A DNA stretch of 24,000 nt from Candidatus Blautia faecipullorum (GTDB lineage: Bacteria; Bacillota; Clostridia; Lachnospirales; Lachnospiraceae), in contig DXEG01000060.1 in NCBI GenBank assembly GCA_019115125.1, positions 23,725 to 47,724 on the forward strand. Direction: 5' to 3'. The notes below the pieces were generated by a model. The model was not told the DNA's origin, ran no database searches, and worked only from the letters and a program-made list of their open reading frames with translations. This document shows, in pieces, positions 1 through 21,602 of the stretch. Both the position numbers and the translations under genes were made by a program. Positions within the stretch are counted from its first letter, which is position 1. Every line of letters starts with the position of its first letter.

Positions 1-116
1 TTGAGACCAAATCTGAAGATACCGGTATCCTCCTCAAAGGAATAATGCCAGTCATCCTCCACCAGAAACTGCTTAACGACATTAACGATTTCATCTGAAT
101 ATTCATATCTACGCAT
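1..116 (-). CDS. hypothetical protein, first 38 codons only (gene runs off the left edge)
   Basis: Too short for the ORF track. ATG at 116 has AAGGGAG about 8 nt upstream. It translates MRRYEYSDEIVNVVKQFLVEDDWHYSFEEDTGIFRFGL with no stop to position 1. It starts 4 nt after the stop of the 120..326 ORF. Vaguely YbjN-like, but too short to call. Confidence 0.45.
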   Translation of the reverse strand, partial: MRRYEYSDEIVNVVKQFLVEDDWHYSFEEDTGIFRFGL

Positions 117-8917: not shown

Positions 8918-9478
8918 CTATCGGATCACGCTATATGTCCTGTCAAATTCGTCTCTTTCAACGAAATTCCAATCACACTCGGTCACATTGCCTACATCAT
9001 CATAAGAAATACCGTAGAAAATGAGCATTGCATCCTCTGTGGCTGCCTCCATGGTTCCCCAAAGCTGCGCTGTATATCTCCGGTCTGAAGAAGCCTTATC
9101 AATGACCAGCCCCTTCTTTTCTACCAAAAACGTCACCTCAGGACACATCTCAAGCTTCGCATCCCAGGCTGGCAGAGGCTTCGGAATCTGCTCGAAGGTA
9201 TCTCCTTCGATATGTCTGTGATTCGCCTCAAAGTATTCCTTATCATTGGGATATGGACTGTCGGTACTATCCAGCTTGATCCAGTCACCAGCCATCGCTT
9301 TCTCTCCGCCGACAGCTCCGTTGACTGCCTCCCGCGAATGGATTTCATATCTGCCATCACCAAGATCGCAGATCTTGCCATTCAGCATCAGTTCTTTTAT
9401 AACAGCATTATCGCTTCCCAGCTGATAAGCCTTAACCAATTTTCCTTTATTCTTAATCACTTCATACATGATTTTCAC
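8918..9478 (-). CDS. hypothetical protein (186 aa)
   Basis: ORF-track frame with GAGGTG 6 nt before ATG 9478. Ordinary globular composition. No motif I recognise. Confidence 0.7.
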   Translation of the reverse strand: MKIMYEVIKNKGKLVKAYQLGSDNAVIKELMLNGKICDLGDGRYEIHSREAVNGAVGGEKAMAGDWIKLDSTDSPYPNDKEYFEANHRHIEGDTFEQIPKPLPAWDAKLEMCPEVTFLVEKKGLVIDKASSDRRYTAQLWGTMEAATEDAMLIFYGISYDDVGNVTECDWNFVERDEFDRTYSVIR

Positions 9479-9695: not shown

Positions 9696-11231
9696 TTACG
9701 CCGTTTTCTCGGATTTGTTGTAGTTTTCCACATCCTTTACCATACTTCCCATCCCTGCTTCTGCAAGGTTAATGAACGAAAGTACACGGTCGCTCCAGCC
9801 TGCAATGAGGTTAAAGCGTGCGCCGCAGAACTGCTGTGTACCATAGCCCTGAAGATCTACACCATGCACCCAGAAGTCTTTGTTGTACTTGCTGCGGTAT
9901 TTGTTCGCAAGCCCCTGTATGGTGGTTTCAAGACCACAGTTGCACTCGTTATCCGAGAAATAGATAACTCGGTCGAACGGCTTAAAGCGTTTGCCCTTAT
10001 CGACCTCCAATGCATATTCCATCGGAAGTGAAAGGTCTGTGCCACCGCCTGCAAATGAGTTCTGTAATGCAATTTCAAGAACAGAATCATACTTGCCATA
10101 GTTTGCGATACGATATCCTCTCTCTTCACTGTTTTTATACACATCCTCCGGGAATTGCATTCCGCGCCGTCTGTAGTATTCACGATAGAGAGTCTTCGAT
10201 GCTTCAAAGTAGCATACCGTTGCATCTTCGCAAAGCTTGTTTGTCATCGCCCCGAGTAAAGAAGCGATATCAGAGCAGCGGATATCGCTCTTTGCAGAAA
10301 TCCGACAGCTCATTGAACCGGATACATCAATGGCGATAAGTGTTCTGCCCTTGATTTTCTCCATATTATCAACCGAAGCCGTAACTGCGCTCTCGAGAGC
10401 ACGGTGAATCTCATCAGTCATGAGTCCTTCCTTCTCAAGCATGCGATAAGCGCTGAAGAAACGGAACGGAAGCTGCTTCGACTTCTTCACCTGAACCGAA
10501 TCAGAAAGTACCGCAAGCACCGGAGTGATATCCGCACCGGACATAATAATGTTGCGAAGGTTACGAAGCAATGCCATGTAGCCAACTTTGCCGGATGCAA
10601 TAAGCTCATCCCAGACTTCCCTTGTATTGCCACGAGAGGAAAGTTCCGTTTCCCAGGTGTACGGAGTCTCAAGGGTATCGTTTAAGATCTTCCCAAAGAG
10701 TTCCTCAATCTCTTTGGACTTCGGATTCGGATGTGTAATGCGGAGAATATCACGGAACTTCACATCTTTGCAGCCGCCATTGTATTTTGCAATCTGGTAC
10801 TCATCGAAGTTCTGGATCACCTCAGCCATCCCACGCTTTAATGCGTTCGGAAACGGCTTGCCATACATGGTCTTGTAGCAGGCCATGATTTCTGTAACAT
10901 CATCCGGACGTTTGACCACACTACAAATGGTCTGGCGGGTAAATGCAGATGCCTCGCGGGCGATCGCAGCGGTAAGCACATGGCTTACAGAACGCATGTT
11001 GAAAACCTCACGAGCAAAGCAGGCAAGGTTGCTAACAAACTCCGGGTGCTTCTTGCAGAGTTCTGTTGCAAGCTGGACGATTTCGTTATCCGTGGATCCA
11101 TAGTATTTTTCCTCGCTAAACATGGTGGTCACTACTGCTGTCATAAGTTGTTCCTTATTGCTCATTCGGTATGCTGCATGACCGGAACGGTTTTCGGTTT
11201 TGATTGTGTTGGTTGTGTTGAACTTAGCCAT
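9696..11231 (-). CDS. rsr: Ro60-related protein Rsr (TROVE domain + C-terminal vWA domain)
   Basis: 511 aa with GGAGGTG 6 nt before the ATG. The N-terminal and central TROVE-like sequence (NRSGHAAYRM...EKYYG...; GYMALLRNLRNI; KQLPFRFFSAY) is followed by a vWA MIDAS motif (LIAIDVSGSMS). Two Y-RNA-like genes lie immediately upstream, which is the classic rsr context. Confidence 0.9.
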   Translation of the reverse strand: MAKFNTTNTIKTENRSGHAAYRMSNKEQLMTAVVTTMFSEEKYYGSTDNEIVQLATELCKKHPEFVSNLACFAREVFNMRSVSHVLTAAIAREASAFTRQTICSVVKRPDDVTEIMACYKTMYGKPFPNALKRGMAEVIQNFDEYQIAKYNGGCKDVKFRDILRITHPNPKSKEIEELFGKILNDTLETPYTWETELSSRGNTREVWDELIASGKVGYMALLRNLRNIIMSGADITPVLAVLSDSVQVKKSKQLPFRFFSAYRMLEKEGLMTDEIHRALESAVTASVDNMEKIKGRTLIAIDVSGSMSCRISAKSDIRCSDIASLLGAMTNKLCEDATVCYFEASKTLYREYYRRRGMQFPEDVYKNSEERGYRIANYGKYDSVLEIALQNSFAGGGTDLSLPMEYALEVDKGKRFKPFDRVIYFSDNECNCGLETTIQGLANKYRSKYNKDFWVHGVDLQGYGTQQFCGARFNLIAGWSDRVLSFINLAEAGMGSMVKDVENYNKSEKTA

Positions 11232-11295
11232 TTGGGCACCTCCATCTTTCTTAAGTGTATGGGGAAATATGTGACTGTTTATATAAATAACATGC

Positions 11296-11422
11296 AGAGA
11301 ATAGGCGATAACAGTAAATATAACGCTTTCCCATTAAGCTACAGAACAGCTATGCTGTCCCAGTGGGATTCGAACCCACATCCCTCGATAACCAGACTCG
11401 AAGTAACTGCCATCTGCACTGC
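11296..11422 (-). ncRNA. yrlA: Y RNA, YrlA-type with tRNA-like module (copy 1, rsr-proximal)
   Basis: On the minus strand the ends form a long stem (GAUGGCAGU with ACUGUUAUC, including two G-U pairs). Enclosed are a variable-arm-like hairpin (CUUCGA...UCGAGG) and a T arm GUGGG-UUCGAAU-CCCAC (11363..11379). Next come an acceptor-like stem closed by a loop (UGGGACAG-CAUAG-CUGUUCUG), then UA and a D arm (GCUU-AAUGGGA-AAGC). This permuted tRNA mimic matches the published YrlA architecture. RNA ends are not determined. Confidence 0.8.
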
Positions 11423-11440
11423 TGCATGATATTTATCCTT

Positions 11441-11482
11441 CAAATGAAACTGCCGAACCGGTCGCTTCACTCAGCCCGGCAG
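11441..11482 (-). terminator. hairpin plus U-rich tract between the two Y RNA genes
   Basis: Minus strand reads CUGCCGGGC...GACCGGUUCGGCAG (stem with G-U pairs, plus coordinates 11450..11482) followed by UUUCAUUUG. It sits about 20 nt downstream of the distal Y RNA. Confidence 0.4.
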
Positions 11483-11500
11483 CTTCTGTAACCACATATA

Positions 11501-11627
11501 AGAGAATCGGCGATAACAGTAAACAAAGCGCTTGACCGTTAAGCTACGGAACAGCTCAGCCGTCCCGGTGGGATTCGAACCCACATCCCTCGATAACCAG
11601 ACTCGAAGTAACTGTTATCTGCACTGC
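11501..11627 (-). ncRNA. yrlA: Y RNA, YrlA-type with tRNA-like module (copy 2, distal)
   Basis: Same 127-nt architecture, offset 205 nt from copy 1. Terminal stem is GAUAACAGU/ACUGUUAUC (9 perfect bp). T arm is GUGGG-UUCGAAU-CCCAC. The closed acceptor-like stem is CGGGACGG-CUGAG-CUGUUCCG and the D arm is GCUU-AACGGUC-AAGC. Differences from copy 1 fall in loops or keep pairing (A-U to G-U, C-G to U-G). Confidence 0.8.
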
Positions 11628-11699
11628 CTATATGTAATTACCAATGTATCTGATGTGTCTGTGCTTTCGTCTTAATCTTCCAAGACTCATCAGGGGCGT

Positions 11700-11786
11700 T
11701 CATTGCCCGAGCACAATGTGCTTCGGTAAAGGTTCCACCGGATTGTACGCTATCCGGCTTCTTTGAATAAATCCTGACCAATACAT
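11700..11786 (-). CDS. possible 28-aa upstream ORF or leader peptide
   Basis: AAAGGAGGAGGT lies 4 nt before ATG 11786. It translates MYWSGFIQRSRIAYNPVEPLPKHIVLGQ. The region also contains hairpins (CCGGAT-N8-ATCCGG), so it may be a structured leader rather than coding. Confidence 0.25.
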   Translation of the reverse strand: MYWSGFIQRSRIAYNPVEPLPKHIVLGQ

Positions 11787-11830
11787 CCGACCTCCTCCTT
11801 TCGATGATTCAATATTAAACCCTTATTTTT

Positions 11831-11866
11831 GTTTCAGCATCTGTGGCATCCCACAGAAACTGAAAC
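11831..11866 (-). other. nested inverted repeat / RNA hairpin downstream of the AAA+ gene
   Basis: GTTTCAG-cat-CTGTGG-catc-CCACAG-aaa-CTGAAAC, with 7-bp outer and 6-bp inner arms. No U-tract follows on the minus strand, so it is not a canonical terminator. Confidence 0.5.
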
Positions 11867-11870
11867 TGTC

Positions 11871-11888
11871 TTTGAAACTTTTGAAACA
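11871..11888 (-). promoter_or_regulatory. two adjacent copies of the TTTGAAAC(T/A) motif
   Basis: TTTGAAACT at 11871-11879 and TTTGAAACA at 11880-11888. They sit 27-44 nt after the AAA+ stop and about 85-100 nt upstream of the 11786 uORF. Confidence 0.35.
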
Positions 11889-11914
11889 CATTTCTGATCA
11901 AATCATGCCTACTG

Positions 11915-13291
11915 TCAGGCCCCGGCAGGAAGAGCTGTTTCCTCCTCTGGTACGATTGTTATGACAATATTTTCGATATCACCTGACAGTAAAACCTTGT
12001 GGCCTTTGTATCGACCAATATTGCGATCATACACAGTTGCTGCTGTGATTGCCTCTCTCACAGCGTCCCTGACGCCCCTGGCGCCATAGTTGCTGTGCTG
12101 TTCCTTCAGCTGCACCATTAGTTCCTCGTCCATATGCTCAAGTTCCATCTCGTAATTCTGCAGCTCTTCCACTACAAATTTGCTGACGATGTCTGTAAGC
12201 GCATCTGCGGGAAGTTCACGGAAAGCCAGACAGTTCGTAATCTTGCCGGCGATTTCCGGATGACCGCAGGCCTTAGCGAGAGTGTTTCTACAAATCTCCT
12301 TCTTTCGGAATGCTGACGCCTCTTCATAAACCTTCATATCTACCGGAATGTTGCTGGTAATGACAAAAATCACATGGCTCAGATCAATATCCGGTGAATT
12401 GTCCGCAAGGTGAACCACACCGCTGGAAAAGCATTCCATAAGCCCGGTATAGATACGATCCGTTGCCTTCTCAATCTCGTCCAGCAGGAAAACCTGGTAT
12501 GGATTGGATCGGACAGGCTCAAACACTGTAGGATCCTTATAGCCTATATAGGAAGGCGGAGATCCGAAGAATCTGTTGACCGAATGCTCACCAATGAACT
12601 CGTTGAGGGCAATCTGATGAAACCCATAAGCCTGTCCGGTCAGCTTCTCCAGTGCTCCCGGAAGAGCTTTTCCAACCTCTGTTTTGCCAACACCGGTCGG
12701 GCCAAAGAGAACAATAACCTCAACTTCTGGCTTTTTTCTGCGGAGATTTGCTGAAATCAGTTCACTGATCTTTTTGATAGCTTCGTCCTGTCCGTAAATA
12801 CCACGCTTCAGTTCCGCCGCCAGTTCATCCGGCCAGACCGTTTTTGTCTGCTTCTTCTGTTCAAGTTCACGGACTTTATCCTTATCCACAATGTATTTTG
12901 AGCTGCCTGCAGCTGTCTCGTTCTCACTTGTCTGCGACAAAGTTACTGCAGATTTCATCGGATTTTTCTCAGCTTCCTGCGATTTTTCCAGCACTGTATA
13001 ACTCCACACCTGATCGGTATTGCAGATTGTTACAGTTCCACCATCCTCCTCTGGCTTGAATTCGATGACCATATCCACAGCCGGAATGTCCTGCGGCAGG
13101 CTCACACGTCCCGCCTCCATACAGGTTTTATCAGCAAAGTTAACGTGGTAAATCTCCATCTCTTTTTTCCCGCTGATTCCCTGAAGCATTTTCCTCAGAC
13201 CACTTTTACCACTCATCAAAATGACAGATGTCAAATGACCACGGTCTTCATCGAAACCAATTACGATACAGTCTTTATCTGAATATCTCAT
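11915..13291 (-). CDS. Clp/Hsp100-type AAA+ ATPase (single ClpB/ClpA D2-like module) with a novel ~180-aa N-terminal domain
   Basis: IYGQDEAIKKI..., Walker A (LFGPTGVGKTEVGKAL), FFGSPPSYIGYKD, Walker B (FLLDEIEKA) and sensor (VITSNIP) follow the AAA_2 (ClpB D2) pattern. Start set at ATG 13291 (GGAAAGGGGGA 7 nt upstream) rather than ATG 13333, which has no SD. Confidence 0.85.
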   Translation of the reverse strand: MRYSDKDCIVIGFDEDRGHLTSVILMSGKSGLRKMLQGISGKKEMEIYHVNFADKTCMEAGRVSLPQDIPAVDMVIEFKPEEDGGTVTICNTDQVWSYTVLEKSQEAEKNPMKSAVTLSQTSENETAAGSSKYIVDKDKVRELEQKKQTKTVWPDELAAELKRGIYGQDEAIKKISELISANLRRKKPEVEVIVLFGPTGVGKTEVGKALPGALEKLTGQAYGFHQIALNEFIGEHSVNRFFGSPPSYIGYKDPTVFEPVRSNPYQVFLLDEIEKATDRIYTGLMECFSSGVVHLADNSPDIDLSHVIFVITSNIPVDMKVYEEASAFRKKEICRNTLAKACGHPEIAGKITNCLAFRELPADALTDIVSKFVVEELQNYEMELEHMDEELMVQLKEQHSNYGARGVRDAVREAITAATVYDRNIGRYKGHKVLLSGDIENIVITIVPEEETALPAGA

Positions 13292-13333: not shown

Positions 13334-14050
13334 CTATCGATATTTGCATAACAGGTTAACGTTTACCTTCTCATATGCATTGAATTCATTAGCGATTTCT
13401 TCATCGGACTTACCGGCTACCGGCTCATACCAGTCCTGTGCACTGAAATAGTCAATATTCTCCTGTATTTTGAACTCTCTCCCATGGCGTGCATACATCT
13501 CATTGATGATCATTTGAATCTCATCGCTGCTATAACCTTCAATATCTGATACCTCCAGGTATCGATCCGCACTATCCGGCATCAGATAGGCTGGCATTGC
13601 TGCATTCTCTTCAGATGTTGCTTCATTATCAGAATCAATGTCCTGAACCTCCTCCGCTGTGAAGGTGTCATCTTCCATCGTATCGGACAGAACCTGCTCA
13701 TTCATGTAGTTGGTGATGGCCTGCTCTTCCGAAGATACATGAGAACGGTTATAGAAAAACGCTCCAATAAACAAGGAAATTACAGCACAGACAATAACTG
13801 ACTTCCACGGAATTCCTGTATGGACAGTTGTTCCAGCCGTGCCAATGGTATGAATCATATTGCCTGCATTACCTGTTGTCCTGTCGTTTCCGGCTGCTGT
13901 CTGCGGACGATATGTCCTGGTTGTTCTTACAATTCTCTGATTCCTCTGGGCCCTGTGATCAGCTTCCGCCTGAGACACATTATCCAATGTGGTTCTTCCG
14001 GTTCTGTCATCTTTATAGTATCGTTTTCCATTGATCAGTACATAACTCAT
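13334..14050 (-). CDS. single-pass membrane protein with C-terminal YARHG domain
   Basis: Start set at ATG 14050 (GTAAGGAGG 8 nt upstream, MSYVLINGKRYY...). One TM helix (WKSVIVCAVISLFIGAFFY), an acidic linker, then the literal YARHG motif (INEMYARHGREFKIQENIDYFSAQDWY). Confidence 0.8.
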   Translation of the reverse strand: MSYVLINGKRYYKDDRTGRTTLDNVSQAEADHRAQRNQRIVRTTRTYRPQTAAGNDRTTGNAGNMIHTIGTAGTTVHTGIPWKSVIVCAVISLFIGAFFYNRSHVSSEEQAITNYMNEQVLSDTMEDDTFTAEEVQDIDSDNEATSEENAAMPAYLMPDSADRYLEVSDIEGYSSDEIQMIINEMYARHGREFKIQENIDYFSAQDWYEPVAGKSDEEIANEFNAYEKVNVNLLCKYR

Positions 14051-14079: not shown

Positions 14080-14466
14080 TCACTTACTGGACTCATAATG
14101 CATCCTGATACGAGCAAATACATCTTCAGCAGTAAGATGCCCCAGTACAGTATCATGAACTCTGTCCATCTCTTCCCGTGTCATCAGTCCGCTGATTTCA
14201 AGAAGTCCCTCAGAAGATCCGTGCCCGTTTGCAATAACACTGCATACAGCGCCTTTGCCCGGTCCCTGCCAGACATTACTGTTACTGTCTTTCGGCTTCG
14301 GACGCCCTTCCGATCCGTAGTAGCAAATCTGCATTCCAAAGTTTTCAAATGGAATACCTGCTTCTGTCAGCAAATCATCCAGTTTCTCCAATTCATCGGA
14401 AGCATTGCCTTCAGCAAAGCCACCGGAAAGTGCCATCATCAGTTTAAGTAAATCCATTGTGCTCAT
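14080..14466 (-). CDS. hypothetical protein (128 aa)
   Basis: ORF-track frame with CAGGAGGAATACAAA before ATG 14466. First gene after the 97-nt spacer that follows E1. No motif recognised. Confidence 0.7.
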   Translation of the reverse strand: MSTMDLLKLMMALSGGFAEGNASDELEKLDDLLTEAGIPFENFGMQICYYGSEGRPKPKDSNSNVWQGPGKGAVCSVIANGHGSSEGLLEISGLMTREEMDRVHDTVLGHLTAEDVFARIRMHYESSK

Positions 14467-14555: not shown

Positions 14556-14564
14556 TTTGAAACT
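14556..14564 (-). promoter_or_regulatory. TTTGAAACT motif abutting the E1 stop codon, with a second GTTTCAG half-site and GTTTC/GAAAC inverted repeat next to it
   Basis: TTTGAAACT at 14556-14564 and CTGAAACT at 14545-14552. On the minus strand these are AGTTTCA repeats 11 nt apart (start to start). GTTTC-tgct-GAAAC lies at 14538-14551. About 90 nt upstream of ATG 14466. Confidence 0.35.
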
Positions 14565-15916
14565 TATGCTACAATATTACATCCAATATCTGAAGATGAT
14601 TTCTCTGCTCCGCAATAGGAGCAGGAATCATTTTTCTGCGCCGGTCCGGACTTCCAGGTAAACGGCCTGCGTTCATCCTCTGTACCAAACAGATGCATGT
14701 ACGGATTAACATCCTGATCTATCGGATAATTTAGCAGCACCGTACACTGATTGATGTATGGAAGCAGTTTTGCCTCATAGCCTTCCTCATGCTCCATCAA
14801 AATGTCGATAGCCAGCTTTGTTTCAAAGATCGCTGTAAGCTGGATATCCAGATACATCCCCGGCTGGAAATGAAGCTTCTCAAGCTCTGTCTCCGTTGCA
14901 TAGAAACGCCTGCGCACCGCCTGATTGCTGTAATCGACACCCTTATCTTCGCCATAAGCACAGGTGTAGCATGCCATGCCGGAATTCGGTTTATACCAGA
15001 ACACCTCTCCTGTGGAGCCTCTTGGGCCACAGCCTGCATCAATCATCGGAATGTTGTATTTATCTGCCAGCTCGTTACAAACATAGCCGCAATGACGATT
15101 ATCCGCACAGCAAAGGATAATGGAATCCTTCCAGATAATCTTCTCAAGTTCAGCAGGATCCACATGCTGGATCAGATCTCTGAAGGTATAAATCTTGCAG
15201 TTCGGATTGATGTCAGCAGCTCTTTCCTTGAAACAGTCAACTTTATAGCGACCTACATCATGGATACCACATTCGTGACGGCAAACATTGTGATAAGCAA
15301 GGATGTCATTGTCAGCCACGATCAGGGAACCGATTCCCGCTCTTACCAGTTCCAGACCGACCTTAAAACCGCCGGATCCGATACCGGAAATAATAGCCTG
15401 CTTTGCTGCCATTCTATCCTGCTCTACGATTCCTTGATTTCTGGAAAATACATCCTGGCGTGTGGAGTAATAATCAATATTGATCTCTGATCCGGAATTA
15501 TCTCTGACAAAGATTTCTGCCTGCTCTTCATTCCAGACAATGGAAAGACCAAACTGACCGAAAATGTCACCGTCTTCTCTCCCTGTGTGCTCTTTTCTGA
15601 CCGCCATACCCAAGACCTTCGCATCTGTTCTTGCATCGTATAGCGCCTCCTGTACGATGTTATAGGTTTTAGTCTCTGGGTGGTAATAGCCCCAAAGTTC
15701 ACCCTCATAACGCTGCTTCCGGTATTCTTCCGGAATCAGAACCGTGTATGGTCTGAGCGCCTCCTGAATCTTTTCAAAGTCCATGAAGTCTTCCTCAGAT
15801 GTTCCTTTCTCTGCCGTATTGTCCATGAAAGTAACTTCTGCAGTTTCTGTCTTAACCGGTTCTGTTTCGGCCGATACCGCTGCCTTCTGCAATGCATTTG
15901 CTGTTCTGTTATCCAT
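14564..15916 (-). CDS. ThiF/MoeB-family E1-like activating enzyme (Bil D-like position)
   Basis: Rossmann ATP site (IISGIGSGGFKVGLELVRAGIG), IVADNDILAYHNVCRH (cf. vD.D.v..sNLnRQ), LCCADN, and CxxC pairs (MACYTCAY; CSYCG). Start set at ATG 15916 (GGAGGAGG 8 nt upstream). Alternative starts are 15958, 15826 and 15781. Confidence 0.85.
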   Translation of the reverse strand: MDNRTANALQKAAVSAETEPVKTETAEVTFMDNTAEKGTSEEDFMDFEKIQEALRPYTVLIPEEYRKQRYEGELWGYYHPETKTYNIVQEALYDARTDAKVLGMAVRKEHTGREDGDIFGQFGLSIVWNEEQAEIFVRDNSGSEINIDYYSTRQDVFSRNQGIVEQDRMAAKQAIISGIGSGGFKVGLELVRAGIGSLIVADNDILAYHNVCRHECGIHDVGRYKVDCFKERAADINPNCKIYTFRDLIQHVDPAELEKIIWKDSIILCCADNRHCGYVCNELADKYNIPMIDAGCGPRGSTGEVFWYKPNSGMACYTCAYGEDKGVDYSNQAVRRRFYATETELEKLHFQPGMYLDIQLTAIFETKLAIDILMEHEEGYEAKLLPYINQCTVLLNYPIDQDVNPYMHLFGTEDERRPFTWKSGPAQKNDSCSYCGAEKSSSDIGCNIVA

Positions 15917-16569
15917 ATATTTTTCCTCCTCCGGGTGTCCCCTGAACAAATCGGACAATCTTGTGCGGATTGATCCTTTATCTTCGGCTGCTGCAAGCGT
16001 TCCACGCTCTGCTTTTTGGCCGCCTTTCTTGCGGCTTCATTACGTTCTACAGTTTCTTTGAGTCTTCGCAGGGCAATACGGGGCATAGCCGCTCTGACTG
16101 CCTTATCGTTGATCTCATACTCTACTTCCGTCTCGTCGCCATTCTCATCAATATACCAGAACTTAATCCGGAATTCAGGGTCAATGAAGATGAGTCCGTT
16201 TACAACGCCGCCAAACTGCTGCGCAAGCTTGATATTTGCCGGATGATCACCATGGCTGAAATGCAGGTACCCGTCCGGATGTCTGTGAACCTGAGAGACT
16301 GTCAGCTTACCGTTTGAGAAATCATAATATTCGCTGAGTCGTGTCGATAAGTGGTCTGCATAAACATGATCCTTCTCACACATAGTTGGCGTATAGGTGG
16401 CATTGATGCCGCTATCCGATACCATGTCAAAAAAGAAGTCATTTCCGATGCGGATGCCCGGCATCTGGATAATGCTTTCGTTTCCGGGATGCCGCCCCAC
16501 CTCGAGCAGCATCCCTCTGTAGGTATTGTGGGTAATATAAACATGATACTTATCTTTTCGCTGAAACAT
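15736..16569 (-). CDS. JAB/JAMM (MPN+) metallopeptidase (Bil C-like position)
   Basis: Complete JAMM signature: upstream Glu (MLLEVGR) and HRHPDGYLHFSHGD (HxH-x7-S-xx-D). ATG 16569 has GGAGG 5 nt upstream (the track's 16575 start is GTG). The last ~60 codons are extremely Arg/Lys-rich and overlap the E1 gene by 181 nt. Confidence 0.8.
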   Translation of the reverse strand: MFQRKDKYHVYITHNTYRGMLLEVGRHPGNESIIQMPGIRIGNDFFFDMVSDSGINATYTPTMCEKDHVYADHLSTRLSEYYDFSNGKLTVSQVHRHPDGYLHFSHGDHPANIKLAQQFGGVVNGLIFIDPEFRIKFWYIDENGDETEVEYEINDKAVRAAMPRIALRRLKETVERNEAARKAAKKQSVERLQQPKIKDQSAQDCPICSGDTRRRKNIWITEQQMHCRRQRYRPKQNRLRQKLQKLLSWTIRQRKEHLRKTSWTLKRFRRRSDHTRF

Positions 16570-16580
16570 AGACACCTCCG

Positions 16581-17033
16581 TTATCTATCGCGATCCACAC
16601 CTGTCTTCTCCCATACACAATAGACGTCGATCCACCTTAGAACCCTAGTCATGGCAGTGTAGCCATTCACGGACGCAGGATCCGTAGATTTTACCTGACA
16701 GATATAGGGAAGTCCCATCGTGGAATCAGAAATCAGGTGATGGAAGCCCGGCTTCAATTTTGTCATAGGATACACTTTGATTGAGCCGCCAAAGAGGCCA
16801 TCGGCATCTCTGCCCGGGTGATCATGCTCGTATACCACATGGAATACAAAGGTTCGCCAACGCTGATCCGGTGCCGGCTTAACCGGCAGGGTCACATCCA
16901 CACAGAATCTATGCTTGTTGTCATAACAAAACATCATTTTCATATTCGGATGGTTATACTCACGCATAAACCTCAGGAAAGCATCCTTTTCAAACTGCAG
17001 TAAAGCTCCGTTCTCTTTTTCATACCAATACAT
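16581..17033 (-). CDS. UBC-fold E2-like conjugating enzyme (Bil B-like position)
   Basis: IKVYPMTKLKPGFHHLISDSTMGLPYICQV...YTAMTRVLRWI follows the E2 core pattern (yP..pP...HPN...G.iCl...W). C in YICQ is the candidate catalytic Cys. ATG 17033 has GGAGGG 6 nt upstream (the track's 17039 start is TTG). Confidence 0.7.
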   Translation of the reverse strand: MYWYEKENGALLQFEKDAFLRFMREYNHPNMKMMFCYDNKHRFCVDVTLPVKPAPDQRWRTFVFHVVYEHDHPGRDADGLFGGSIKVYPMTKLKPGFHHLISDSTMGLPYICQVKSTDPASVNGYTAMTRVLRWIDVYCVWEKTGVDRDR

Positions 17034-17045
17034 ATGCAACCCTCC

Positions 17046-17426
17046 TTATCGTGCATAGTTCTTCTCTGGTGCCGTATTGATTACAGGGGTGCTGGAATTC
17101 TGCGCCTGACTTGCAGGCACCACCTCTCCGTTGCGGAATACAAACGCCTCAACGTCTGCAGTTCCATTTGCCTGATCTTCGAGCTGGCCATAATTAGGCT
17201 CATGAGCTGTCCTAATAACAGGAGTCGTAGAGTTCTCTGCCTGATTGGCTGGTACTATTCTTCCTTTGTCGTATACGAATGCCTCTACATCTGCAGATCT
17301 ATTTGCCTGATCCTCAAGCTGGCCATAATTCTTATATCTTCCGGTTCTGATCATATCCATATGCTTTTCCTCCTTGTCAAAATCCGCATATTCCTTAAAG
17401 TTACCATTTATTACAGATGCATTCAT
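17046..17426 (-). CDS. 126-aa tandem-repeat protein occupying the Ubl/modifier slot of the E2-JAB-E1 operon
   Basis: ATG 17426 has GAAAGGAGG 9 nt upstream (MNASVINGNFKEY...). It contains two 45-aa repeats, NYGQLEDQAN(R/G)(S/T)ADVEAFV(Y/F)..G..VPA.QA.NS.TPVI.TA.E, and begins a third (NYAR-stop). The stop is 12 nt from the E2 start. Confidence 0.7.
   Translation of the reverse strand: MNASVINGNFKEYADFDKEEKHMDMIRTGRYKNYGQLEDQANRSADVEAFVYDKGRIVPANQAENSTTPVIRTAHEPNYGQLEDQANGTADVEAFVFRNGEVVPASQAQNSSTPVINTAPEKNYAR
17049..17330 (-). repeat. 2 x 135-nt in-frame tandem repeat plus a 12-nt partial third unit
   Basis: AATTATGGC (N-Y-G) occurs at 17330-17322 and 17195-17187. AAC-TAT-GCA-CGA (N-Y-A-R) lies at 17060-17049. 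Confidence 0.9.
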
Positions 17427-17442
17427 TGTACAGTCCTCCTTT

Positions 17443-17661
17443 CTATCTAAACAAAGATCTGATGATATAACCGATGACAAATACCATGATCACAATCGGC
17501 ATGACTGCATTGATCCATGCCCAGGTGTTATTGGCAAATGCCGTAACGATAAACTCCTTATATTTGATACAGCTGACCACCACCAGCATTGTTCCTGCTA
17601 TTGTCCAGCCGATCAGGAACCGTTTGATCACGGTCCACACTGTAACTACCCGATAATCCAT
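17443..17661 (-). CDS. small membrane protein (72 aa, 2 predicted TM helices)
   Basis: ATG 17661 (MDYRVVTVWTVIK...) has GGGGGTGGTG 6 nt upstream. The track's 17700 start is GTG inside the previous gene. Hydrophobic stretches: FLIGWTIAGTMLVVVSCI and WAWINAVMPIVIMVFVIGYII. Confidence 0.65.
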   Translation of the reverse strand: MDYRVVTVWTVIKRFLIGWTIAGTMLVVVSCIKYKEFIVTAFANNTWAWINAVMPIVIMVFVIGYIIRSLFR

Positions 17662-17666
17662 GTCTG

Positions 17667-17945
17667 TCACCACCCCCGATAGCTTCTGCGCAACTTCCAC
17701 TTCAGCCGCACGGTAAAATAAACAACAGTTGCTATCACAATCAGGATTGGAAATCCGGAGGACAACAGATTTGCCATGAAAATGGCAATCCGCGCTGTCA
17801 CCGCCCCAAAATTGGCAATGATGCTAAAAGCTGCCAATCCTGAAAGCACAGAACAGATAATTAGCGCGAGTGTTACGCCCGACACGATCCTAACTCCGGT
17901 TCCTCTGTAGCTTTCCTGTTTAAAGATACTCCCTGCACGTCTCAT
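17667..17945 (-). CDS. small membrane protein (92 aa, 2-3 predicted TM helices)
   Basis: ORF-track frame with hydrophobic stretches VSGVTLALIICSVLSGLAAFSIIANFGAV and GFPILIVIATVVYFTV. Its ATG overlaps the stop of a 15-codon uORF (ACATGAGA). Confidence 0.65.
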   Translation of the reverse strand: MRRAGSIFKQESYRGTGVRIVSGVTLALIICSVLSGLAAFSIIANFGAVTARIAIFMANLLSSGFPILIVIATVVYFTVRLKWKLRRSYRGW

Positions 17946-17989
17946 GTGAACGTCACCTCCCTTGGACCTGTATCTGTATATGCTGTCAT
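17942..17989 (-). CDS. possible 15-aa upstream ORF coupled to the first membrane-protein gene
   Basis: GAAAGGAGG lies 7 nt before ATG 17989. It translates MTAYTDTGPREVTFT. Its TGA overlaps the downstream ATG (ATGA). Confidence 0.3.
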   Translation of the reverse strand: MTAYTDTGPREVTFT

Positions 17990-18069: not shown

Positions 18070-18102
18070 ATTGAAACTTAAATTTCAGCCTTTTTTGAAA
18101 CT
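18070..18102 (-). promoter_or_regulatory. two copies of the (A/T)TTGAAACT motif
   Basis: ATTGAAACT at 18070-18078 and TTTGAAACT at 18094-18102, in the 192-nt spacer between the degenerate ATPase gene and the membrane/Ubl operon. About 80-110 nt upstream of the uORF ATG 17989. Confidence 0.35.
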
Positions 18103-18137: not shown

Positions 18138-19388
18138 TCACACCACAACCGGAACCCCTGCCGCAGCAGGCAGGAAGTCCGATGTACGAATCAGATAGAC
18201 GTTTGCATTCGCTGTGGTTTTAACAGCCAGATAATCCGATGTTCCGCCGAAAAATCCCGGCTTTACATACATATCCTGACTCCGGACACGAAGACGCTCT
18301 TCGCTCTGACTCTGCCAGTGTACTGCTCGTTTGAACGACACGAGGATGTGCGGCGTATTTCCAGCCACCGGTACCGGATAATGATACTGATAAGAGCCGA
18401 ACAAATCTCGGGACAGATCATCCGTTGCAGCCGATGTACCATGATGGAAAAGTACCACATTCGGAAAATCCAGCTCTGCATTACCGTGCATGGCTTCTCT
18501 GACATTCTGCGAAACCATCATCAGTTCAATCTTCCCCTGGCGTCTGGTCTGCATGAGGTACTTCATTAATTCATCATTTTCATTCACAAACTGCATTTCA
18601 TCGAGGATGATACGGATTCGCGGCACTCGTTTCAGGGTATGGAATATTTCCTCCTTCAGATAGGAGTTGAAAATACTCTGATTACAAGAGCATGTGTACA
18701 TGGCCATCCCAGCCAGGTTCCCCTTCGCTCCGCTCTGAAAGTTGTATTTCGTATCGCTGCCAGGAGCATAGATATCTTCAAATATCTCTTCCAAGCGTTC
18801 AAAGAGCCTGCGAAGCACAATGCCTGCTTCATGATTAGCGCGAATATTATCGGCAATCACATTGGAGAGACCTGACTGCAGAGCAAATTCGGAGATAAAA
18901 TCATCATCCTCATTCAGGAGCTTTACGATGGCTGGCAGGGATACCGGATACTTTGCGGAAACGACATTCAGAACAGCGGCAGCATAGATCATGACCTGGT
19001 CGGTCAGAATGCCATAGCCCATCTCTTCCGCTGTCATACGGACAAAGCGAAGAATCTGCTGTGCAGACATTCCATAAAATGGATGATAGTTCTTATCCGC
19101 AGGACATGATGTCATAACGCAATCAATCTCATGTGCACTTACTTTCTGCTGTATAGCCGTCATCAGCTCCGGATGACTGGTGAGCAGGATTGTGGGCATA
19201 TCATTTTTCTCAATACCACTACAGAACAGATCCAGCACCATTGCATGATTTCCGGCCTCAACTCCGCTGATCAGAAGATCGCCGTGAATATTGCGGAAAA
19301 AGGATGCACTGTCAACACGCCCCTCGAACACACGTCTTGCTGCATTCATACGCTCACATTCATTGATAACCATTCTTTTATTACCCAT
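18138..19388 (-). CDS. Walker-A-degenerate paralogue of the TraG/VirD4-type ATPase (416 aa)
   Basis: ATG 19388 has GGAAGGAG 7 nt upstream. It aligns by eye with the 20196..21602 protein: IRIILDEMQF vs KYFLLDEMLL; RRQGKIELMMVSQN vs GRSLGVRMMCGLQN; NVVLFHHGTSAATDDLSRDLFG vs NIVAFRSNDYDTRQFVINRLG. The P-loop position reads GVEAGNHAMV instead of GAPGTGKTNF. Confidence 0.75.
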   Translation of the reverse strand: MGNKRMVINECERMNAARRVFEGRVDSASFFRNIHGDLLISGVEAGNHAMVLDLFCSGIEKNDMPTILLTSHPELMTAIQQKVSAHEIDCVMTSCPADKNYHPFYGMSAQQILRFVRMTAEEMGYGILTDQVMIYAAAVLNVVSAKYPVSLPAIVKLLNEDDDFISEFALQSGLSNVIADNIRANHEAGIVLRRLFERLEEIFEDIYAPGSDTKYNFQSGAKGNLAGMAMYTCSCNQSIFNSYLKEEIFHTLKRVPRIRIILDEMQFVNENDELMKYLMQTRRQGKIELMMVSQNVREAMHGNAELDFPNVVLFHHGTSAATDDLSRDLFGSYQYHYPVPVAGNTPHILVSFKRAVHWQSQSEERLRVRSQDMYVKPGFFGGTSDYLAVKTTANANVYLIRTSDFLPAAAGVPVVV

Positions 19389-19461
19389 AGTTTCACTCCT
19401 TCCTGCCGAATTCATATATGAATCCGGCCTTCTGATTCTCTAATGCTTATCGCCTGCACTC

Positions 19462-20195: not shown

Positions 20196-21602
20196 TTAAC
20201 CGTACAACGGCATTGTAAACAGAAACGGATCTTCACACGCAAGTGAAACCACTGCTTCACCGTTCTTCAGTTTCAACAGATTCCAGTCTTCCACCGTGTG
20301 ACCGGCCCGCTGGATATTGAGATTTGCCTGCTGTACGGAAAGACTGAAGTTCTGGTAGTTCTCACCCAGGCGATTGATAACAAACTGTCTGGTATCGTAA
20401 TCGTTCGATCTGAACGCCACAATGTTCTGGAAAGACGACAGGATGTTCCTTGCGCCGGCCACCCCATATTGCTCTTCAAGTCCGCATGTATTCTGAAGTC
20501 CGCACATCATTCTGACTCCCAGAGAACGCCCGAAATTTAAACTGTCTGATAAATGCTCAAGCCTCGGAAGAAGGAGCATTTCGTCTAACAGAAAGTACTT
20601 ATTGGTTTTCATCTGTTGTCTTCCACCCAGTGCGTTAGCAAGAGCTCTGTCGATGAGAATGCCATACATAGGGGCTAGCAGTCTGCCTTTACGAAGGTCA
20701 TACTCAATAAAGACAACTTTCTTATTTCCACTGCATATGATATCTCGCATAGAGAACTCTCTTGCCGGATCAGCCTGTGCAAACGGACCGACGAACATCT
20801 TCTTCAACATGGAACTGACATAAGAGTTCACTCCCTGCGTCTGGTTTCCCTTGCCTGAGATATAGTCAATGCAGCTGCGTTGATCAGACATATAATCCAG
20901 ACTGAGAATCTTCTTAAGATCCTCATTGGTACTGTGAGTAAAGAAATTGATAAATTCTTTGTTATTCAGCTTCGACTGATCAAAACGCCAGTAAGTCTTC
21001 ATGAAATAAATCATGACAGCTGCAACAACCTGCTCTGCCATTGCCGGAAAAACAGGCTGTGTTTCACTTCGCATGGACTGAAACAGCTGCTCACAAAGTT
21101 CCAGTGCATCTTCGTTGGATTCCGGCGTATAGACCAGTTTCCCATCATTTCCCCGTGGCATTACTTCTGCAAAAATATTATGATAGGAGGTAACCCTGCG
21201 ATATGCATCGCCATTGCCGATGATAACCTTCATGCTGTCCGGAATTCTGCTTCCGAAAGTCTCCAGATAATCACCCTTCGTATCGAAGATGATAATCACA
21301 TCTGTCGGCTGCATGGTGGCAAGCATGCGATCCAGTGTCATATTAAAAAAATTGGTCTTACCAGTGCCAGGCGCCCCAAGAGCCAATAAGCCATAGGCAA
21401 GTATATCTCTGCTCAAACCGAACAATCTCTTAGTCTTCGGATCCTGAAATGCAACAAACGGACTTCGTGATTTATCCGCTGTCCATACAGGAACCGGAAT
21501 GTCTCCGATGCTCTGTCCTAAGATGGTCTTGGTGTACATACCACTGTTTCTTTCCTGATTGCTGCCTGTCCCGATTCGTTTATGTCCAAAATCATATGCC
21601 AT
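20196..21602 (-). CDS. TraG/TraD/VirD4-type (FtsK-HerA superfamily) P-loop ATPase, soluble (468 aa, no TM segment)
   Basis: AAGGAGGG lies 7 nt before the ATG. Walker A (LGAPGTGKTNFF), Walker B (YFLLDEMLLLP) and GVRMMCGLQNTCGLEEQYG (cf. the coupling-protein motif Qs..QL...YG). Confidence 0.8.
   Translation of the reverse strand: MAYDFGHKRIGTGSNQERNSGMYTKTILGQSIGDIPVPVWTADKSRSPFVAFQDPKTKRLFGLSRDILAYGLLALGAPGTGKTNFFNMTLDRMLATMQPTDVIIIFDTKGDYLETFGSRIPDSMKVIIGNGDAYRRVTSYHNIFAEVMPRGNDGKLVYTPESNEDALELCEQLFQSMRSETQPVFPAMAEQVVAAVMIYFMKTYWRFDQSKLNNKEFINFFTHSTNEDLKKILSLDYMSDQRSCIDYISGKGNQTQGVNSYVSSMLKKMFVGPFAQADPAREFSMRDIICSGNKKVVFIEYDLRKGRLLAPMYGILIDRALANALGGRQQMKTNKYFLLDEMLLLPRLEHLSDSLNFGRSLGVRMMCGLQNTCGLEEQYGVAGARNILSSFQNIVAFRSNDYDTRQFVINRLGENYQNFSLSVQQANLNIQRAGHTVEDWNLLKLKNGEAVVSLACEDPFLFTMPLYG

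Follow-up and report, generated by a model that had tools for sequence, protein, structure and literature searches.

A rare gene cluster confined to Lachnospiraceae-type gut Clostridia encodes a complete ubiquitin-style enzyme set, comprising an E1, a predicted E2, and a JAB protease, in which the gene occupying the "ubiquitin" position encodes a tandemly repeated peptide of about 45 residues with no ubiquitin fold. We analyzed a 24,000-nt stretch of the Candidatus Blautia faecipullorum genome (GCA_019115125.1, contig DXEG01000060.1, positions 23,725 to 47,724; hereafter the window) to follow up an earlier note, based on sequence alone, that had proposed a Bil-like E2-JAB-E1 operon chained to two tiny membrane proteins. 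The note's observation is confirmed, whereas its interpretation is only partly supported.

Organization of the operon

Seven reading frames lie on the minus strand of 14564-17989. They are a 15-codon uORF (17942-17989), whose TGA overlaps the ATG of the next gene; TM92 (17667-17945); TM72 (17443-17661); a 126-aa two-repeat protein with a strong AAAGGAGGA ribosome-binding site (17046-17426); a 150-aa E2 (16581-17033); a 277-aa JAB ORF (15736-16569); and E1 (14564-15916/15958). The gaps of 5, 16, 12, and 11 nt and the JAB/E1 overlap reported in the note are correct. The arrangement is far beyond chance, as the same gene order recurs in about 19 distinct loci found by protein look-up and in 53 metagenome loci (related loci are designated L below).

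The uORF (MTAYTDTGPREVTFT) has a ribosome-binding site but is not conserved in any relative examined: its start codon is absent in the closest fused relative, L010, and there is no counterpart in L001, L017, L018, or L019. It is thus probably not a gene. The 192-nt gap upstream of TM92 contains AGTTTCA...AAGTTTCAAT direct repeats (18070-18102, minus strand). GTTTCA repeats recur in this gap in L010, L017, and L018, while in L019 the same gene set starts after a terminator-like hairpin. The repeats are a candidate promoter or operator for the TM92-to-AAA+ transcription unit, a function that is inferred only.

TM92 has a hydrophobic stretch at residues 15-83 and a basic C-terminus, and TM72 has two predicted TM helices (residues 11-34 and 45-72), as judged by hydropathy. 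TM92 has no family hit. The note had suggested that the two small membrane proteins act as a membrane effector or anchor and had made their co-occurrence with the module a test of its proposal. The two genes do co-travel with the module and form an adjacent pair in 15/18 and 29/31 evaluable loci, including L006 and L019; TM72 is always paired with TM92. However, the pair sits elsewhere in the cluster in L026, L028, and L029 and is absent in L004, L008, L023, L044, and L047, among which L004, L008, and L023/L044 are minimal versions of the system. The pair is therefore an accessory part and not core.

The E1, E2, and JAB enzymes

E1 (450 aa from the ATG at 15916, which is preceded by GGAGGAGG) comprises a ~110-aa beta-rich middle domain and a single ThiF adenylation domain. 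It matches Pfam ThiF at 1.7e-24 and the PADLOC Cap2-type "E1-E2" models at 2e-22, the latter over the E1 part only; its relatives in the PDB are ThiF, MoeB, PaaA, and MccB. GIGSGG, DxD, CCADNRH, and Cys296 in AGCGPR, the candidate crossover-loop Cys (codon at 15029-15031), are invariant across homologues. The two CxxC pairs, putatively Zn-binding and counted by the note among the intact ThiF signatures, are present in the window but are not conserved family-wide.

E2 and JAB match no Pfam, NCBIfam, PADLOC, or PDB sequence model, so that their assignments, though upheld, rest on fold and transitive evidence. The AlphaFold model of E2 (starting MYWYEK) has a pLDDT of 82.8, and nearly all of the top 50 Foldseek matches in the PDB are E2/UBC/UEV chains. 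The best match is the CdnG-E2 complex 8yjy_B (probability 0.98, E 0.02, TM 0.47), and hhalign returned nothing; the E2 assignment rests on the predicted fold only. The FHH...C motif is intact, with His98/99 upstream of the candidate catalytic Cys112 (codon at 16698-16700), and His99 and Cys112 are invariant across homologues; the His and Cys are also invariant in a sister family.

The JAB ORF carries an invariant JAMM motif (E23...H95xH97-x7-S105-xx-D108; HRHPDGYLHFSHGD at 16246-16287). The family profile finds 399 representatives, and 8 of 10 sampled distant hits carry Pfam Prok-JAB; the JAB of the sister family passes the Prok-JAB cut-off directly. Homologues align only to the first ~190 aa, arguing that the true domain is roughly residues 1-190 (16000-16569).

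The JAB/E1 overlap results from a frameshift

The last ~80 residues of the JAB ORF are an out-of-frame read across the start of E1. JAB and E1 form one fused protein in 52 of 58 related loci, and a 1-nt deletion in an A-run (A5, 16013-16017, minus strand) splits them here. The 90%-identical L020 has A6 at this site and an in-frame fusion, and the closest relatives L030 and L033 carry an A6 run in the linker. The overlap seen by the note is therefore a frameshift lesion rather than a designed overlap. The split genotype is seen in 18 contigs from several samples, and splits have arisen independently at least four more times.

A tandem-repeat protein in the modifier position

The repeat protein lies directly upstream of E2 in every related locus. 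In the window it consists of a 34-aa leader ending ...KNY, two 45-aa units, and the tail AR. Unit 1 (17190-17324; GQLEDQANRSADVEAFVYDKGRIVPANQAENSTTPVIRTAHEPNY) and unit 2 (17055-17189; GQLEDQANGTADVEAFVFRNGEVVPASQAQNSSTPVINTAPEKNY) are 32/45 identical at the protein level but undetectable as a DNA tandem repeat. The AlphaFold model has a pLDDT of 49.6 and shows only a hairpin; the note was correct that this slot does not hold a beta-grasp protein.

The family of 107 proteins has one, two, or three units, and the whole unit is conserved, not just its flanks. All 186 junctions have Tyr (132) or Phe (54) followed by a small residue or the stop codon (Gly 92, Ala 81, Ser 5, end of protein 4), much like a polyubiquitin precursor. 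Each unit is flanked by the motif I-x-T-[AG]-x-x-[KP]-N-[YF] followed by Gly or Ala, and the 10-residue leader repeats the same flanking motif. Some proteins end exactly at ...EKNY, while others carry short variable tails that start with Ala.

In the sister loci L074 and L081, one or two similar tandem ~50-aa units are fused in frame to the N-terminus of the homologous E2, with no Met at the junction in L081. This parallels the Ubl-E2 fusion BubAB, which is cleaved by the JAB-E1 fusion BubCD (PMC11601596). The units of the two families are only 14-21% similar in a MAFFT alignment, so that homology between them is suggestive and not proven.

Downstream partners and the extended cluster

The conserved core continues downstream of E1, which the note had missed. 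The "adaptor" (13334-14050, minus strand) comprises a conserved 33-residue N-terminal motif (M.Y.L..G.R.Y...D..SQ.E..R), a linker, one TM helix (78-103, by hydropathy), and an extracytoplasmic YARHG domain (Pfam, 1.4e-15). The N-terminal motif is invariant even where YARHG or the TM helix is missing (L004, L006, L008). It is followed by a 458-aa ClpA/ClpB-D2-like AAA+ ATPase (11915-13291, minus strand) with a conserved ~110-aa N-terminal domain, which matches AAA_2 at 2e-21 and the ClpA and ClpB models at 4e-38 and 5e-35, far below their cut-offs. Walker A GPTGVGKT, Walker B LLDEIEKA, and a GYVGY-type pore loop are invariant, and the gene is present after the adaptor in nearly all loci. The minimal loci L008/L009 consist only of the modifier, E2, JAB::E1, adaptor, and AAA+ genes, set among housekeeping genes.

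A 128-aa gene (14080-14466, minus strand) inserted between E1 and the adaptor is specific to the window's clade and not part of the family-wide core. It has no tblastn counterpart in L001, L010, L017, or L018, is present only in near relatives such as L022, L030, L031, and L034-L038, and has no family hit. The conserved soluble protein p183 (8918-9478, minus strand; no family hit) directly follows the AAA+ gene in most relatives, but here a TROVE insertion separates them.

On the other side, the extended cluster includes three minus-strand genes identified as parts by synteny. A T4CP-like (TrwB/TraG-D_C) soluble ATPase (20196-21602) matches Pfam TrwB_AAD_bind at 2.7e-30 and PADLOC mad8 at 7e-14. 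Its conserved partner p425 (18138-19415) is possibly a Walker-A-less paralogue of it, as suggested by a weak colinear BLASTP match to the T4CP-like protein (E 0.01). p434 (21618-22922), conserved upstream of the T4CP-like gene, has an HExxH motif (LHENTHCF) and an acidic C-terminal tail; its C-terminal region is shared with small proteins in L001.

A model for a peptide-conjugation system

We favor, with moderate confidence, a model in which the region is the enzymatic heart of a previously undescribed family of bacterial ubiquitin-type conjugation systems. The one to three ~45-aa units encoded directly upstream of E2 and their conserved flanks are seen in the sequences themselves; everything that follows is inference. 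JAB would cut after the aromatic residue at each junction, as a deubiquitinase does on polyubiquitin. The single-domain, ThiF-type E1 would adenylate the new C-terminus and take it onto the invariant crossover-loop Cys, and the unit would then pass to the invariant Cys of the UBC-fold E2, which would attach it to a target. In the weakest step, the membrane-anchored adaptor and the ClpB-like unfoldase would act on or with the conjugates. TM92 and TM72 would form an accessory membrane pair, either an effector or an anchor. Every characterized E1 substrate ends in Gly, or in Asn for MccB, and a Tyr/Phe C-terminus has no known precedent; the unit also lacks a confident predicted fold. ClpP accompanies the AAA+ in only 2 lineages, so a degradative outcome is not general.

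No described subtype matches, in agreement with the note. The nearest described architecture is Type I Bub, owing to the ancestral JAB::E1 fusion, but the cluster uses Cys chemistry, as judged from its conserved residues, and has neither a beta-grasp modifier nor a DUF6527 protein.

Alternative interpretations

The biological role of the cluster may be defense or effector export. In one low-confidence reading, compatible with the tagging chemistry, the wider cluster is not an anti-phage system but an effector-export or interbacterial-antagonism apparatus driven by FtsK/HerA-type translocase ATPases, with the conjugation module marking or regulating cargo or machinery. The window family carries the T4CP-like ATPase plus p425, an HExxH protein, small proteins with acidic C-terminal tails, and several small membrane proteins. 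Both sister loci place the module right after an FtsK_SpoIIIE ATPase, which in L074 comes with a WXG100-like protein (a match just below Pfam's cut-off) and an ADP-ribosyltransferase toxin. Type VII secretion loci contain the ubiquitin-like YukD/EsaB. However, the flanks are typical defense-island genes (TIR proteins, Cas13a, a STAND NTPase, DarT1-NADAR, a Card1-like nuclease, and TROVE), the minimal loci L008 and L023 lack any translocase, and no VirB4, relaxase, or other channel components were seen.

It is also conceivable, but unlikely, that the enzyme module is real and the repeat protein is not the conjugated tag but a substrate or target, a decoy, or a pro-peptide or inhibitor that JAB removes to license the E2. 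E1 would then activate the C-terminus of another protein, as in Type II CBASS, where the CD-NTase itself is conjugated and an E1/E2/JAB set works without a dedicated Ubl (PMC11601596). The absence of a confident fold, the unprecedented aromatic C-terminus, and the fusion to E2 in the sister loci, which would also fit an autoinhibitory pro-peptide, are consistent with this view. Against it, no other protein of the locus has a conserved C-terminus, as the ends of the AAA+, the adaptor, and p183 all vary. Variable copy number, exact ends at ...NY, and disposable tails are what a processed modifier precursor looks like and are not expected of a target or an inhibitor.

Similarly doubtful is the possibility that the module is an inactive remnant in this particular genome. 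The fusion is the rule, the JAB domain of BubCD is rigidly docked on E1 (PMC11601596), and many relatives are visibly decaying, with an IS insertion and frameshift in L020 and further frameshifts and deletion chimeras elsewhere. Yet both ORFs keep all catalytic residues, the downstream genes are intact, and E1 has a strong ribosome-binding site and an internal ATG whose EEE..M context is conserved even in the fused forms. The window copy may therefore still work as two proteins, as in Bil systems, which work with separate JAB and E1 (PMC11601596).

A ribosomal peptide natural product pathway is improbable. In such a pathway the repeat protein would be a multi-core precursor adenylated by the E1-like enzyme as by MccB and PaaA, JAB the leader or linker peptidase, and the TM proteins would serve export or immunity. 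PaaA and MccB are among the best solved relatives of E1 (2.4e-8 and 1.5e-5), repeated cores with conserved flanks and variable copy number are typical of multi-core precursors, and a radical-SAM/SPASM enzyme sits next to the modifier in L004 and L006. However, ThiF and MoeB score better than MccB, conservation extends over the whole unit, and the radical-SAM enzyme occurs in only 2 lineages, where it has its own separate peptide. An E2 with invariant His and Cys, an AAA+ unfoldase, and in-frame fusion of units to E2 have no place in known RiPP pathways.

The note's term Bil-like holds only for gene order. That the cluster is a divergent member of the Bil family, for which the gene order modifier-E2-JAB-E1 and Cys-based E1 and E2 speak, is very unlikely, as three defining features contradict it (no beta-grasp Ubl, a JAB ancestrally fused to E1 rather than stand-alone, and one adenylation domain in place of the tandem IAD-AAD-CYS E1) and no sequence model links the E2 or JAB to any described family.

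On the favored reading, these gut Clostridia use a tandemly encoded mini-peptide in place of ubiquitin, which would be a new kind of protein tag if experiments confirm it.

Gene content and predicted enzymes

The minus strand from about 23.6 kb down to 4.9 kb of the window is one long run of co-directional genes. Within 14564-17989, seven reading frames are found exactly as the earlier note described them: a 15-codon uORF at 17942-17989, whose stop overlaps the next start, TM92 (a small membrane protein) at 17667-17945, TM72 (a second one) at 17443-17661, a 126-aa two-repeat protein at 17046-17426, a 150-aa protein at 16581-17033, a 277-aa protein at 15736-16569, and a ThiF-domain protein ending at 14564. 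The gaps are 5, 16, 12 and 11 nt, followed by an overlap. The observation made in that note is thus confirmed, whereas its interpretation as a Bil-like E2-JAB-E1 operon is only partly supported, as detailed below. An identical 277-aa product is on record from a Candidatus Blautia faecipullorum MAG, and the same split gene arrangement was read in 18 contigs from several samples, so it is not an error of one assembly. The uORF is not conserved, which led us to reject it as a leader peptide.

The E1 assignment holds. Pfam ThiF matches with 86.7 bits against a cut-off of 28.1 (1.7e-24), PADLOC Cap2-type 'E1-E2' models score 2e-22 over the E1 part only, and ThiF, MoeB, PaaA, MccB and UBA5 are the solved relatives. 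The protein has the GxGxxG, Arg finger region and DxxDN Mg site expected of a Rossmann-type adenylation domain of the E1/ThiF superfamily, as GIGSGG, YHNVCRH and CCADNRH. In an alignment of six family members, GxGSxG, DxD, YHN..RH, CC.DNRH and the Cys in 'GCG.R.STGE' (crossover-loop region) are invariant, but the two CxxC pairs are not.

The E2 assignment is supported by predicted fold, not by sequence. Pfam, NCBIfam, PADLOC and PHROGs gave no hits for the E2, the JAB, the repeat protein, TM92, TM72, the 128-aa protein p128, p183 (a conserved soluble protein) or p425 (a conserved partner of a T4CP-like ATPase), even at E <= 10 for every member of the E2 and JAB alignments, and phmmer and hmmsearch of E2 and JAB against PDB sequences also found nothing. 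hhalign of the E2 alignment against an approximate human UBE2D2 sequence returned a probability of 0.3%. The E2 family is small, with 42 clusters, all unnamed gut-metagenome or Lachnospiraceae proteins, in which Tyr-Pro, His-His and Cys are invariant. AlphaFold gave a confident model (pLDDT 82.8) with the order helix, four strands, loop, helix. Nearly all of its 50 best PDB fold matches are E2, UBC or UEV chains, led by a CBASS E2 (8yjy_B, probability 0.98, E 0.02, TM 0.47). The E-values are weak, and we call the protein an E2 on predicted fold, invariant residues and position.

The JAB was equally invisible to the libraries and is supported by motif and by transitive profile evidence. Its alignment keeps E23, H95, H97, S105 and D108 (E...HxH-x7-S-xx-D) invariant or nearly so; the MPN fold is inferred from this motif and the profiles. 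A profile search of 1.84 billion representatives found 399 proteins, and of ten distant hits that we sampled (E 1e-10 to 1e-28), eight carry Pfam Prok-JAB.

The JAB/E1 overlap is a lesion

The overlap between JAB and E1 is not a designed one. Homologues align only to the first ~190 residues of the JAB ORF, and several continue in frame into E1. Three-frame translation shows that the basic C-terminal tail of the window's JAB ORF is the E1 N-terminus read out of frame. Against a 90%-identical contig, the only frame-changing difference in the linker is A5 (window 16013-16017) versus A6. Over the 58 loci that hold both domains, JAB and E1 share one ORF in 52, and splits occur in the window lineage and at least four other times. 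Because the relatives simply have one more A, we also rejected a programmed frameshift, although low-level slippage on A5 cannot be excluded. The lesion may or may not impair the window's own copy.

Downstream of the lesion, E1 has an ATG at 15916 preceded by GGAGGAGG. That sequence plus the ATG (15914-15931) lies inside the coding sequence 'PEEEKYM', and the 'EEE..M' context is kept even in the fused forms. A separately translated E1 is therefore plausible, and the conserved context hints that an internal start may produce free E1 even from fused genes.

Gene neighborhoods define a core and an accessory membrane pair

Protein look-ups, a scan of species-representative genomes and a metagenome scan gave 82 loci, which we scored by tblastn with the window's proteins; a first metagenome scan with the single protein P0195 had found nothing. 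The invariant core comprises the modifier candidate (the repeat protein), E2, JAB::E1, a small "adaptor" protein with a conserved 33-residue N-terminal motif, and a ClpA/B-D2-like AAA+ with intact Walker A, Walker B and pore-loop motifs plus a conserved N-domain. The adaptor usually also has a TM helix and often a YARHG domain. In L008/L009, the minimal loci, these five genes stand alone among housekeeping genes.

Whether the two small membrane proteins travel with the module had been posed as a test in the earlier note. TM92 and TM72 are always adjacent to each other, are present in 15 of 18 and 29 of 31 evaluable loci, and are usually directly upstream of the modifier candidate. They sit elsewhere in the cluster in loci L026, L028 and L029 and are absent from L004, L008, L023, L044 and L047. 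They co-travel with the module, but as an accessory pair.

Most loci also have p101, an HExxH protein, a T4CP-like ATPase and p425 upstream, and p183 plus a ~1000-aa protein downstream. In the window that large protein (1045 aa; 4947-8084, minus strand) has a Card1/CARF-PDDEXK-like nuclease C-terminus; a ~1000-aa protein 21-32% identical to it follows p183 in more distant loci, so it may belong to the system as an effector. A second large uncharacterised protein (1141 aa; 1061-4486, plus strand) has weak PADLOC hits (PDC-S15 and the ThsA STALD region). The HExxH protein, p434 (21618-22922), carries the motif as LHENTHCF. Its conserved C-terminal region (PVSLEEYN...) occurs as a stand-alone 115-aa protein in Blautia caecimuris (locus L001, 5545-6217). 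These proteins and a neighboring 102-aa protein end in acidic tails, ...D(G)(M/L)D(I/P), which might be a recognition signal for the adjacent T4CP-like ATPase. p425 (18138-19415) aligns weakly but colinearly with that ATPase (20196-21602; E 0.01), with the Walker A site replaced and a Walker-B-like 'IILDEM' kept, and may be a degenerate paralogue that forms a mixed ring.

At the window's left end, 3-116 (minus strand) is the start of a homologue of the 121-aa protein that follows the AAA+ gene in B. caecimuris (68% identity over 38 aa). There that protein is followed by ClpP, a second T4CP-like ATPase and an HSP70-like gene, and the second half of that larger cluster may lie just beyond the window. 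ClpP appears in two lineages. A radical-SAM/SPASM enzyme also appears in two divergent lineages (L004, 6608-7594; L006, 8607-9819), inserted with its own small peptide (conserved YAPPEFMG) directly upstream of the modifier candidate; in L004 the modifier-like sequence is read as the C-terminus of the SPASM ORF.

The flanks hold TIR proteins, Cas13a, a STAND NTPase, DarT1-NADAR, WYL and TROVE. Rfam at gathering thresholds found nothing in the window, but the ORF-free gap at 11232-11914 (minus strand), upstream of the TROVE gene at 9696-11231, holds two sub-threshold YrlA (Y RNA-like) matches at 11530-11588 (26.5 bits, E 0.012) and 11325-11383 (23.2 bits) and a sub-threshold type III hammerhead match at 11660-11715. 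Together with the TROVE/Ro60-vWA protein, this looks like an Rsr plus tandem Y-RNA-like cassette inserted between the AAA+ gene and p183. The cassette recurs in the window's near relatives (for example L022, L034, L035 and L038) and is absent in L010, the closest fused relative, and in the more distant loci. Generic promoter and terminator scans were no better than shuffles. However, direct repeats of (A)GTTTCA(A) in the intergenic region upstream of TM92 (18070-18102) are conserved in the equivalent gaps of L010, L017 and L018 and may be an operator or promoter; in L019 the same gene set begins after a terminator-like hairpin.

The cluster is rare: only 9 of 185,579 species-representative genomes matched in the pattern scan, all of them Clostridia. 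One is the cultured Frisingicoccus caecimuris DSM 28559, which has the full fused cluster. DNA searches against plasmids and phages and an E2 scan of viral contigs found no relative, and a plasmid or phage origin is therefore unsupported. Many relatives are deletion chimeras (p425::JAB, JAB::YARHG, JAB::T4CP, JAB::AAA+), are truncated by an IS, or lack modifier-E2-JAB altogether (homologues P0058, P0062, P0080 and P0083; loci L020, L029 and L041), and the cluster appears to turn over quickly.

The repeat protein resembles a polyubiquitin precursor in its logic

The 107 homologues of the repeat protein contain one, two or three units of ~45 residues (GQLEDQA.G..DVEAFVFRNGEVVPA.QA.NS..PVI.TAPEKNY). 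Some proteins end exactly at ...EKNY, while others add 'AR', 'A', 'AC', 'AL' or a longer unconserved tail that begins with Ala. At 186 unit ends the last residue is Tyr (132) or Phe (54), and the next is Gly 92, Ala 81, Ser 5, Val 3, Cys 1, or the stop codon 4 times. The short conserved leader (MI.TG..K.[YF]) repeats the motif that ends each unit, so every unit is bracketed by the same sequence. The window's two units are 32/45 identical, yet Tandem Repeats Finder saw no DNA repeat in the gene. AlphaFold gives no confident fold (pLDDT 49.6), showing a short helix, a hairpin and a strand per unit; with a length of 45 aa, this rules out a standard beta-grasp. The pattern of variable unit number, exact ends and disposable tails is the logic of polyubiquitin precursors.

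A sister family supplies the strongest comparative argument. Loci L073-L077 and L081 have an E1 35-41% identical to the window's, and L073-L076 also have an E2 about 26% identical that starts MYWYEND (the window's starts MYWYEKENG) and keeps the same invariant His and Cys. In these loci one (L081) or two (L074) tandem ~50-residue units, each bracketed by ...PKGKLA or ...AGGKLA, are fused in frame to the N-terminus of the E2; in L081 there is no Met at the junction, so the fusion is real. After the fusion come a separate JAB that passes Pfam's Prok-JAB cut-off, a ThiF E1, and a membrane protein with a YARHG or OmpA domain. This mirrors Type I Bub, where a Ubl-E2 fusion is cleaved by the JAB domain of a JAB-E1 fusion to expose the modifier's C-terminus (PMC11601596). 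The unit sequences of the two families align poorly (14-21% identity), and we treat them as equivalent in position and not as proven homologues.

Relation to described systems

The classes catalogued by Iyer et al. 2006 (rows 6a-6e) correspond, by our own matching drawn in part from PMC11601596, to the 6A-MBL, CBASS, Bil and Bub/6E systems of the later literature. The present family fits none of them, and full-text searches found no description of such a system.

Type I Bub operons (formerly 6E.1) encode BubAB (a Ubl-E2 fusion with beta-grasp domains), BubCD (a JAB-E1 fusion) and BubE (a DUF6527 serine protease) (PMC11601596). The family shares with them an N-terminal JAB fused to a single-domain, ThiF-like E1, split secondarily in the window, with nearly the same JAMM residue spacing (E28/H91/H93/D104 in BubCD, E23/H95/H97/D108 here), and an E2 whose predicted fold lacks the two C-terminal UBC helices. 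Sister-family units are fused to E2 as in BubAB, so the JAB is expected to mature the precursor. However, the candidate modifier is a separate gene in the window family, and the fused units of the sister loci are not beta-grasp-sized. Invariant Cys in E2 and in the E1 crossover loop implies thioester chemistry, where Bub uses Ser/Tyr oxyesters, with a catalytic Ser in its E2 and no Cys in its E1 crossover loop. No protein of the window gave a DUF6527 match in the Pfam scans, an adaptor and a ClpB-like AAA+ are added, and no detectable sequence match to solved Bub chains appeared in the PDB searches.

With Bil (BilABCD), the system to which the earlier note likened the operon, the family shares the gene order modifier, E2, JAB, E1, Cys-based chemistry as inferred from the invariant residues, the absence of an encoded E3, and the defence-island setting. 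Its E2, like BilB, has a candidate catalytic Cys (Cys112, with His99 also invariant) in a UBC-like predicted fold. It fails on the modifier, the E1 architecture and the JAB arrangement. BilA is a beta-grasp Ubl with a C-terminal Gly, while the units here end in Tyr/Phe and gave no Pfam or NCBIfam hit. The E1, unlike the tandem IAD-AAD-CYS E1 of Bil, has one ThiF stretch only (residues 178-339 of the 464-aa ORF), preceded by a ~110-aa beta-rich domain that is not ThiF, and its candidate Cys lies in the crossover loop itself. BilC is a separate JAB, whereas JAB is separate in the window only because of the frameshift.

Type II CBASS combines a Cap2 E2-E1 fusion with the JAB Cap3. The E1 domain scores best against PADLOC Cap2-type models, the best fold match of the E2 is a CBASS E2, and both systems lack a beta-grasp Ubl. 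In contrast, there is no PADLOC or Pfam hit to a CD-NTase and no cyclic-nucleotide effector, E2 is separate from E1, JAB is fused to E1, and a dedicated small candidate modifier gene is present.

Eukaryotic polyubiquitin and ubiquitin-fusion precursors likewise have head-to-tail units in variable number, one or a few disposable residues after the last unit, and a conserved junction presumably cut by a dedicated peptidase; the unit here is 45 aa, is not a beta-grasp, and ends in Tyr/Phe rather than Gly-Gly. Pup of actinobacteria, which acts with Mpa/ARC and the proteasome, is likewise a small tag with little predicted structure encoded next to an AAA+ unfoldase, and a ClpP protease is present in two lineages of the present family. 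However, Pup is ligated by glutamine-synthetase-like PafA through a side-chain carboxylate, not by an E1/E2 cascade, no proteasome is encoded here, and the link between tag and unfoldase is only genomic. MccB and PaaA, the E1-like enzymes of peptide natural products, are likewise ThiF-type enzymes adenylating the C-terminus of a short ribosomal peptide that does not end in Gly, but their pathways have no E2, no JAB and no AAA+, and their peptides are not tandem units fused to an E2.

Proposed mechanism and biological role

The best-supported reading is a conjugation cascade whose tag is the mini-unit. In this view, JAB would mature the precursor at the Y/F|G/A junctions, E1 would adenylate the new C-terminus and take it onto its loop Cys, and E2 would take it onto Cys112 and transfer it to a target. 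The gene order, the repeated units with their bracketing motif and the conserved residues are shown by our analysis, whereas cleavage, adenylation, thioester transfer and conjugation are inferred. The main chemical objection is that no known E1 activates an aromatic C-terminus. We looked for an alternative conjugated C-terminus on the AAA+, the adaptor and p183 and rejected each, because their ends are not conserved.

The adaptor and the AAA+ are obligatory partners, and their job is the least certain step. The AAA+ has a ClpB/ClpA-D2 pore loop, and we saw no IGF/IGL ClpP-docking motif. Since ClpP is present in only two lineages, we rejected ClpP-dependent degradation as a general feature; an unfolding or extraction role is more defensible. 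TM92 and TM72 could be a membrane effector or an anchor, by inference alone.

Defence-island flanks argue for immunity. Against that, translocase ATPases are constantly present: T4CP-like plus a probable Walker-A-less paralogue in this family, and FtsK_SpoIIIE in the sister loci, where the conjugation module lies directly after the ATPase (L074, 1187-6064; L081, 2785-6347). In L074 that ATPase is followed by a WXG100-like protein (26.7 bits, just below the cut-off of 27.3) and a 403-aa ADP-ribosyltransferase toxin, a type VII secretion-like toxin context. Together with the acidic C-terminal tails in the window family, these features keep an export or antagonism role possible, and our data do not separate the two roles.

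The furthest-reaching reading, which we consider doubtful, is that a non-beta-grasp, largely unstructured ~45-residue peptide is made as a poly-unit precursor, cut after an aromatic residue, and then activated and transferred by a genuine E1-E2 thioester cascade onto proteins that a dedicated ClpB-like unfoldase handles at the membrane. This would be a third bacterial tagging pathway, a Pup-like tag on ubiquitin-like enzymology, and would show that the E1/E2 machinery is not tied to the ubiquitin fold or to a Gly C-terminus.

The module is of the bacterial E1-E2-JAB kind; its candidate modifier, if it is truly conjugated, would be new in kind. The family contributes two enzyme families (the E2 and the JAB) that no public profile library covers, a recurrent link between conjugation modules, a Clp-type unfoldase and FtsK/T4CP-type translocases, and a cultured host that carries the intact fused version. 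All characterised E1/E2 cascades, eukaryotic or bacterial (Bil, Bub, CBASS), move either a beta-grasp protein or the tail of a folded enzyme, and the activated C-terminus is Gly or similarly small. Here, a recognisable E1, E2 and JAB set is accompanied by a short tandem peptide with an aromatic C-terminus in the modifier slot. If that peptide is the tag, the definition of a "ubiquitin-like" modifier widens, and the origin and substrate tolerance of E1 enzymes become directly testable.
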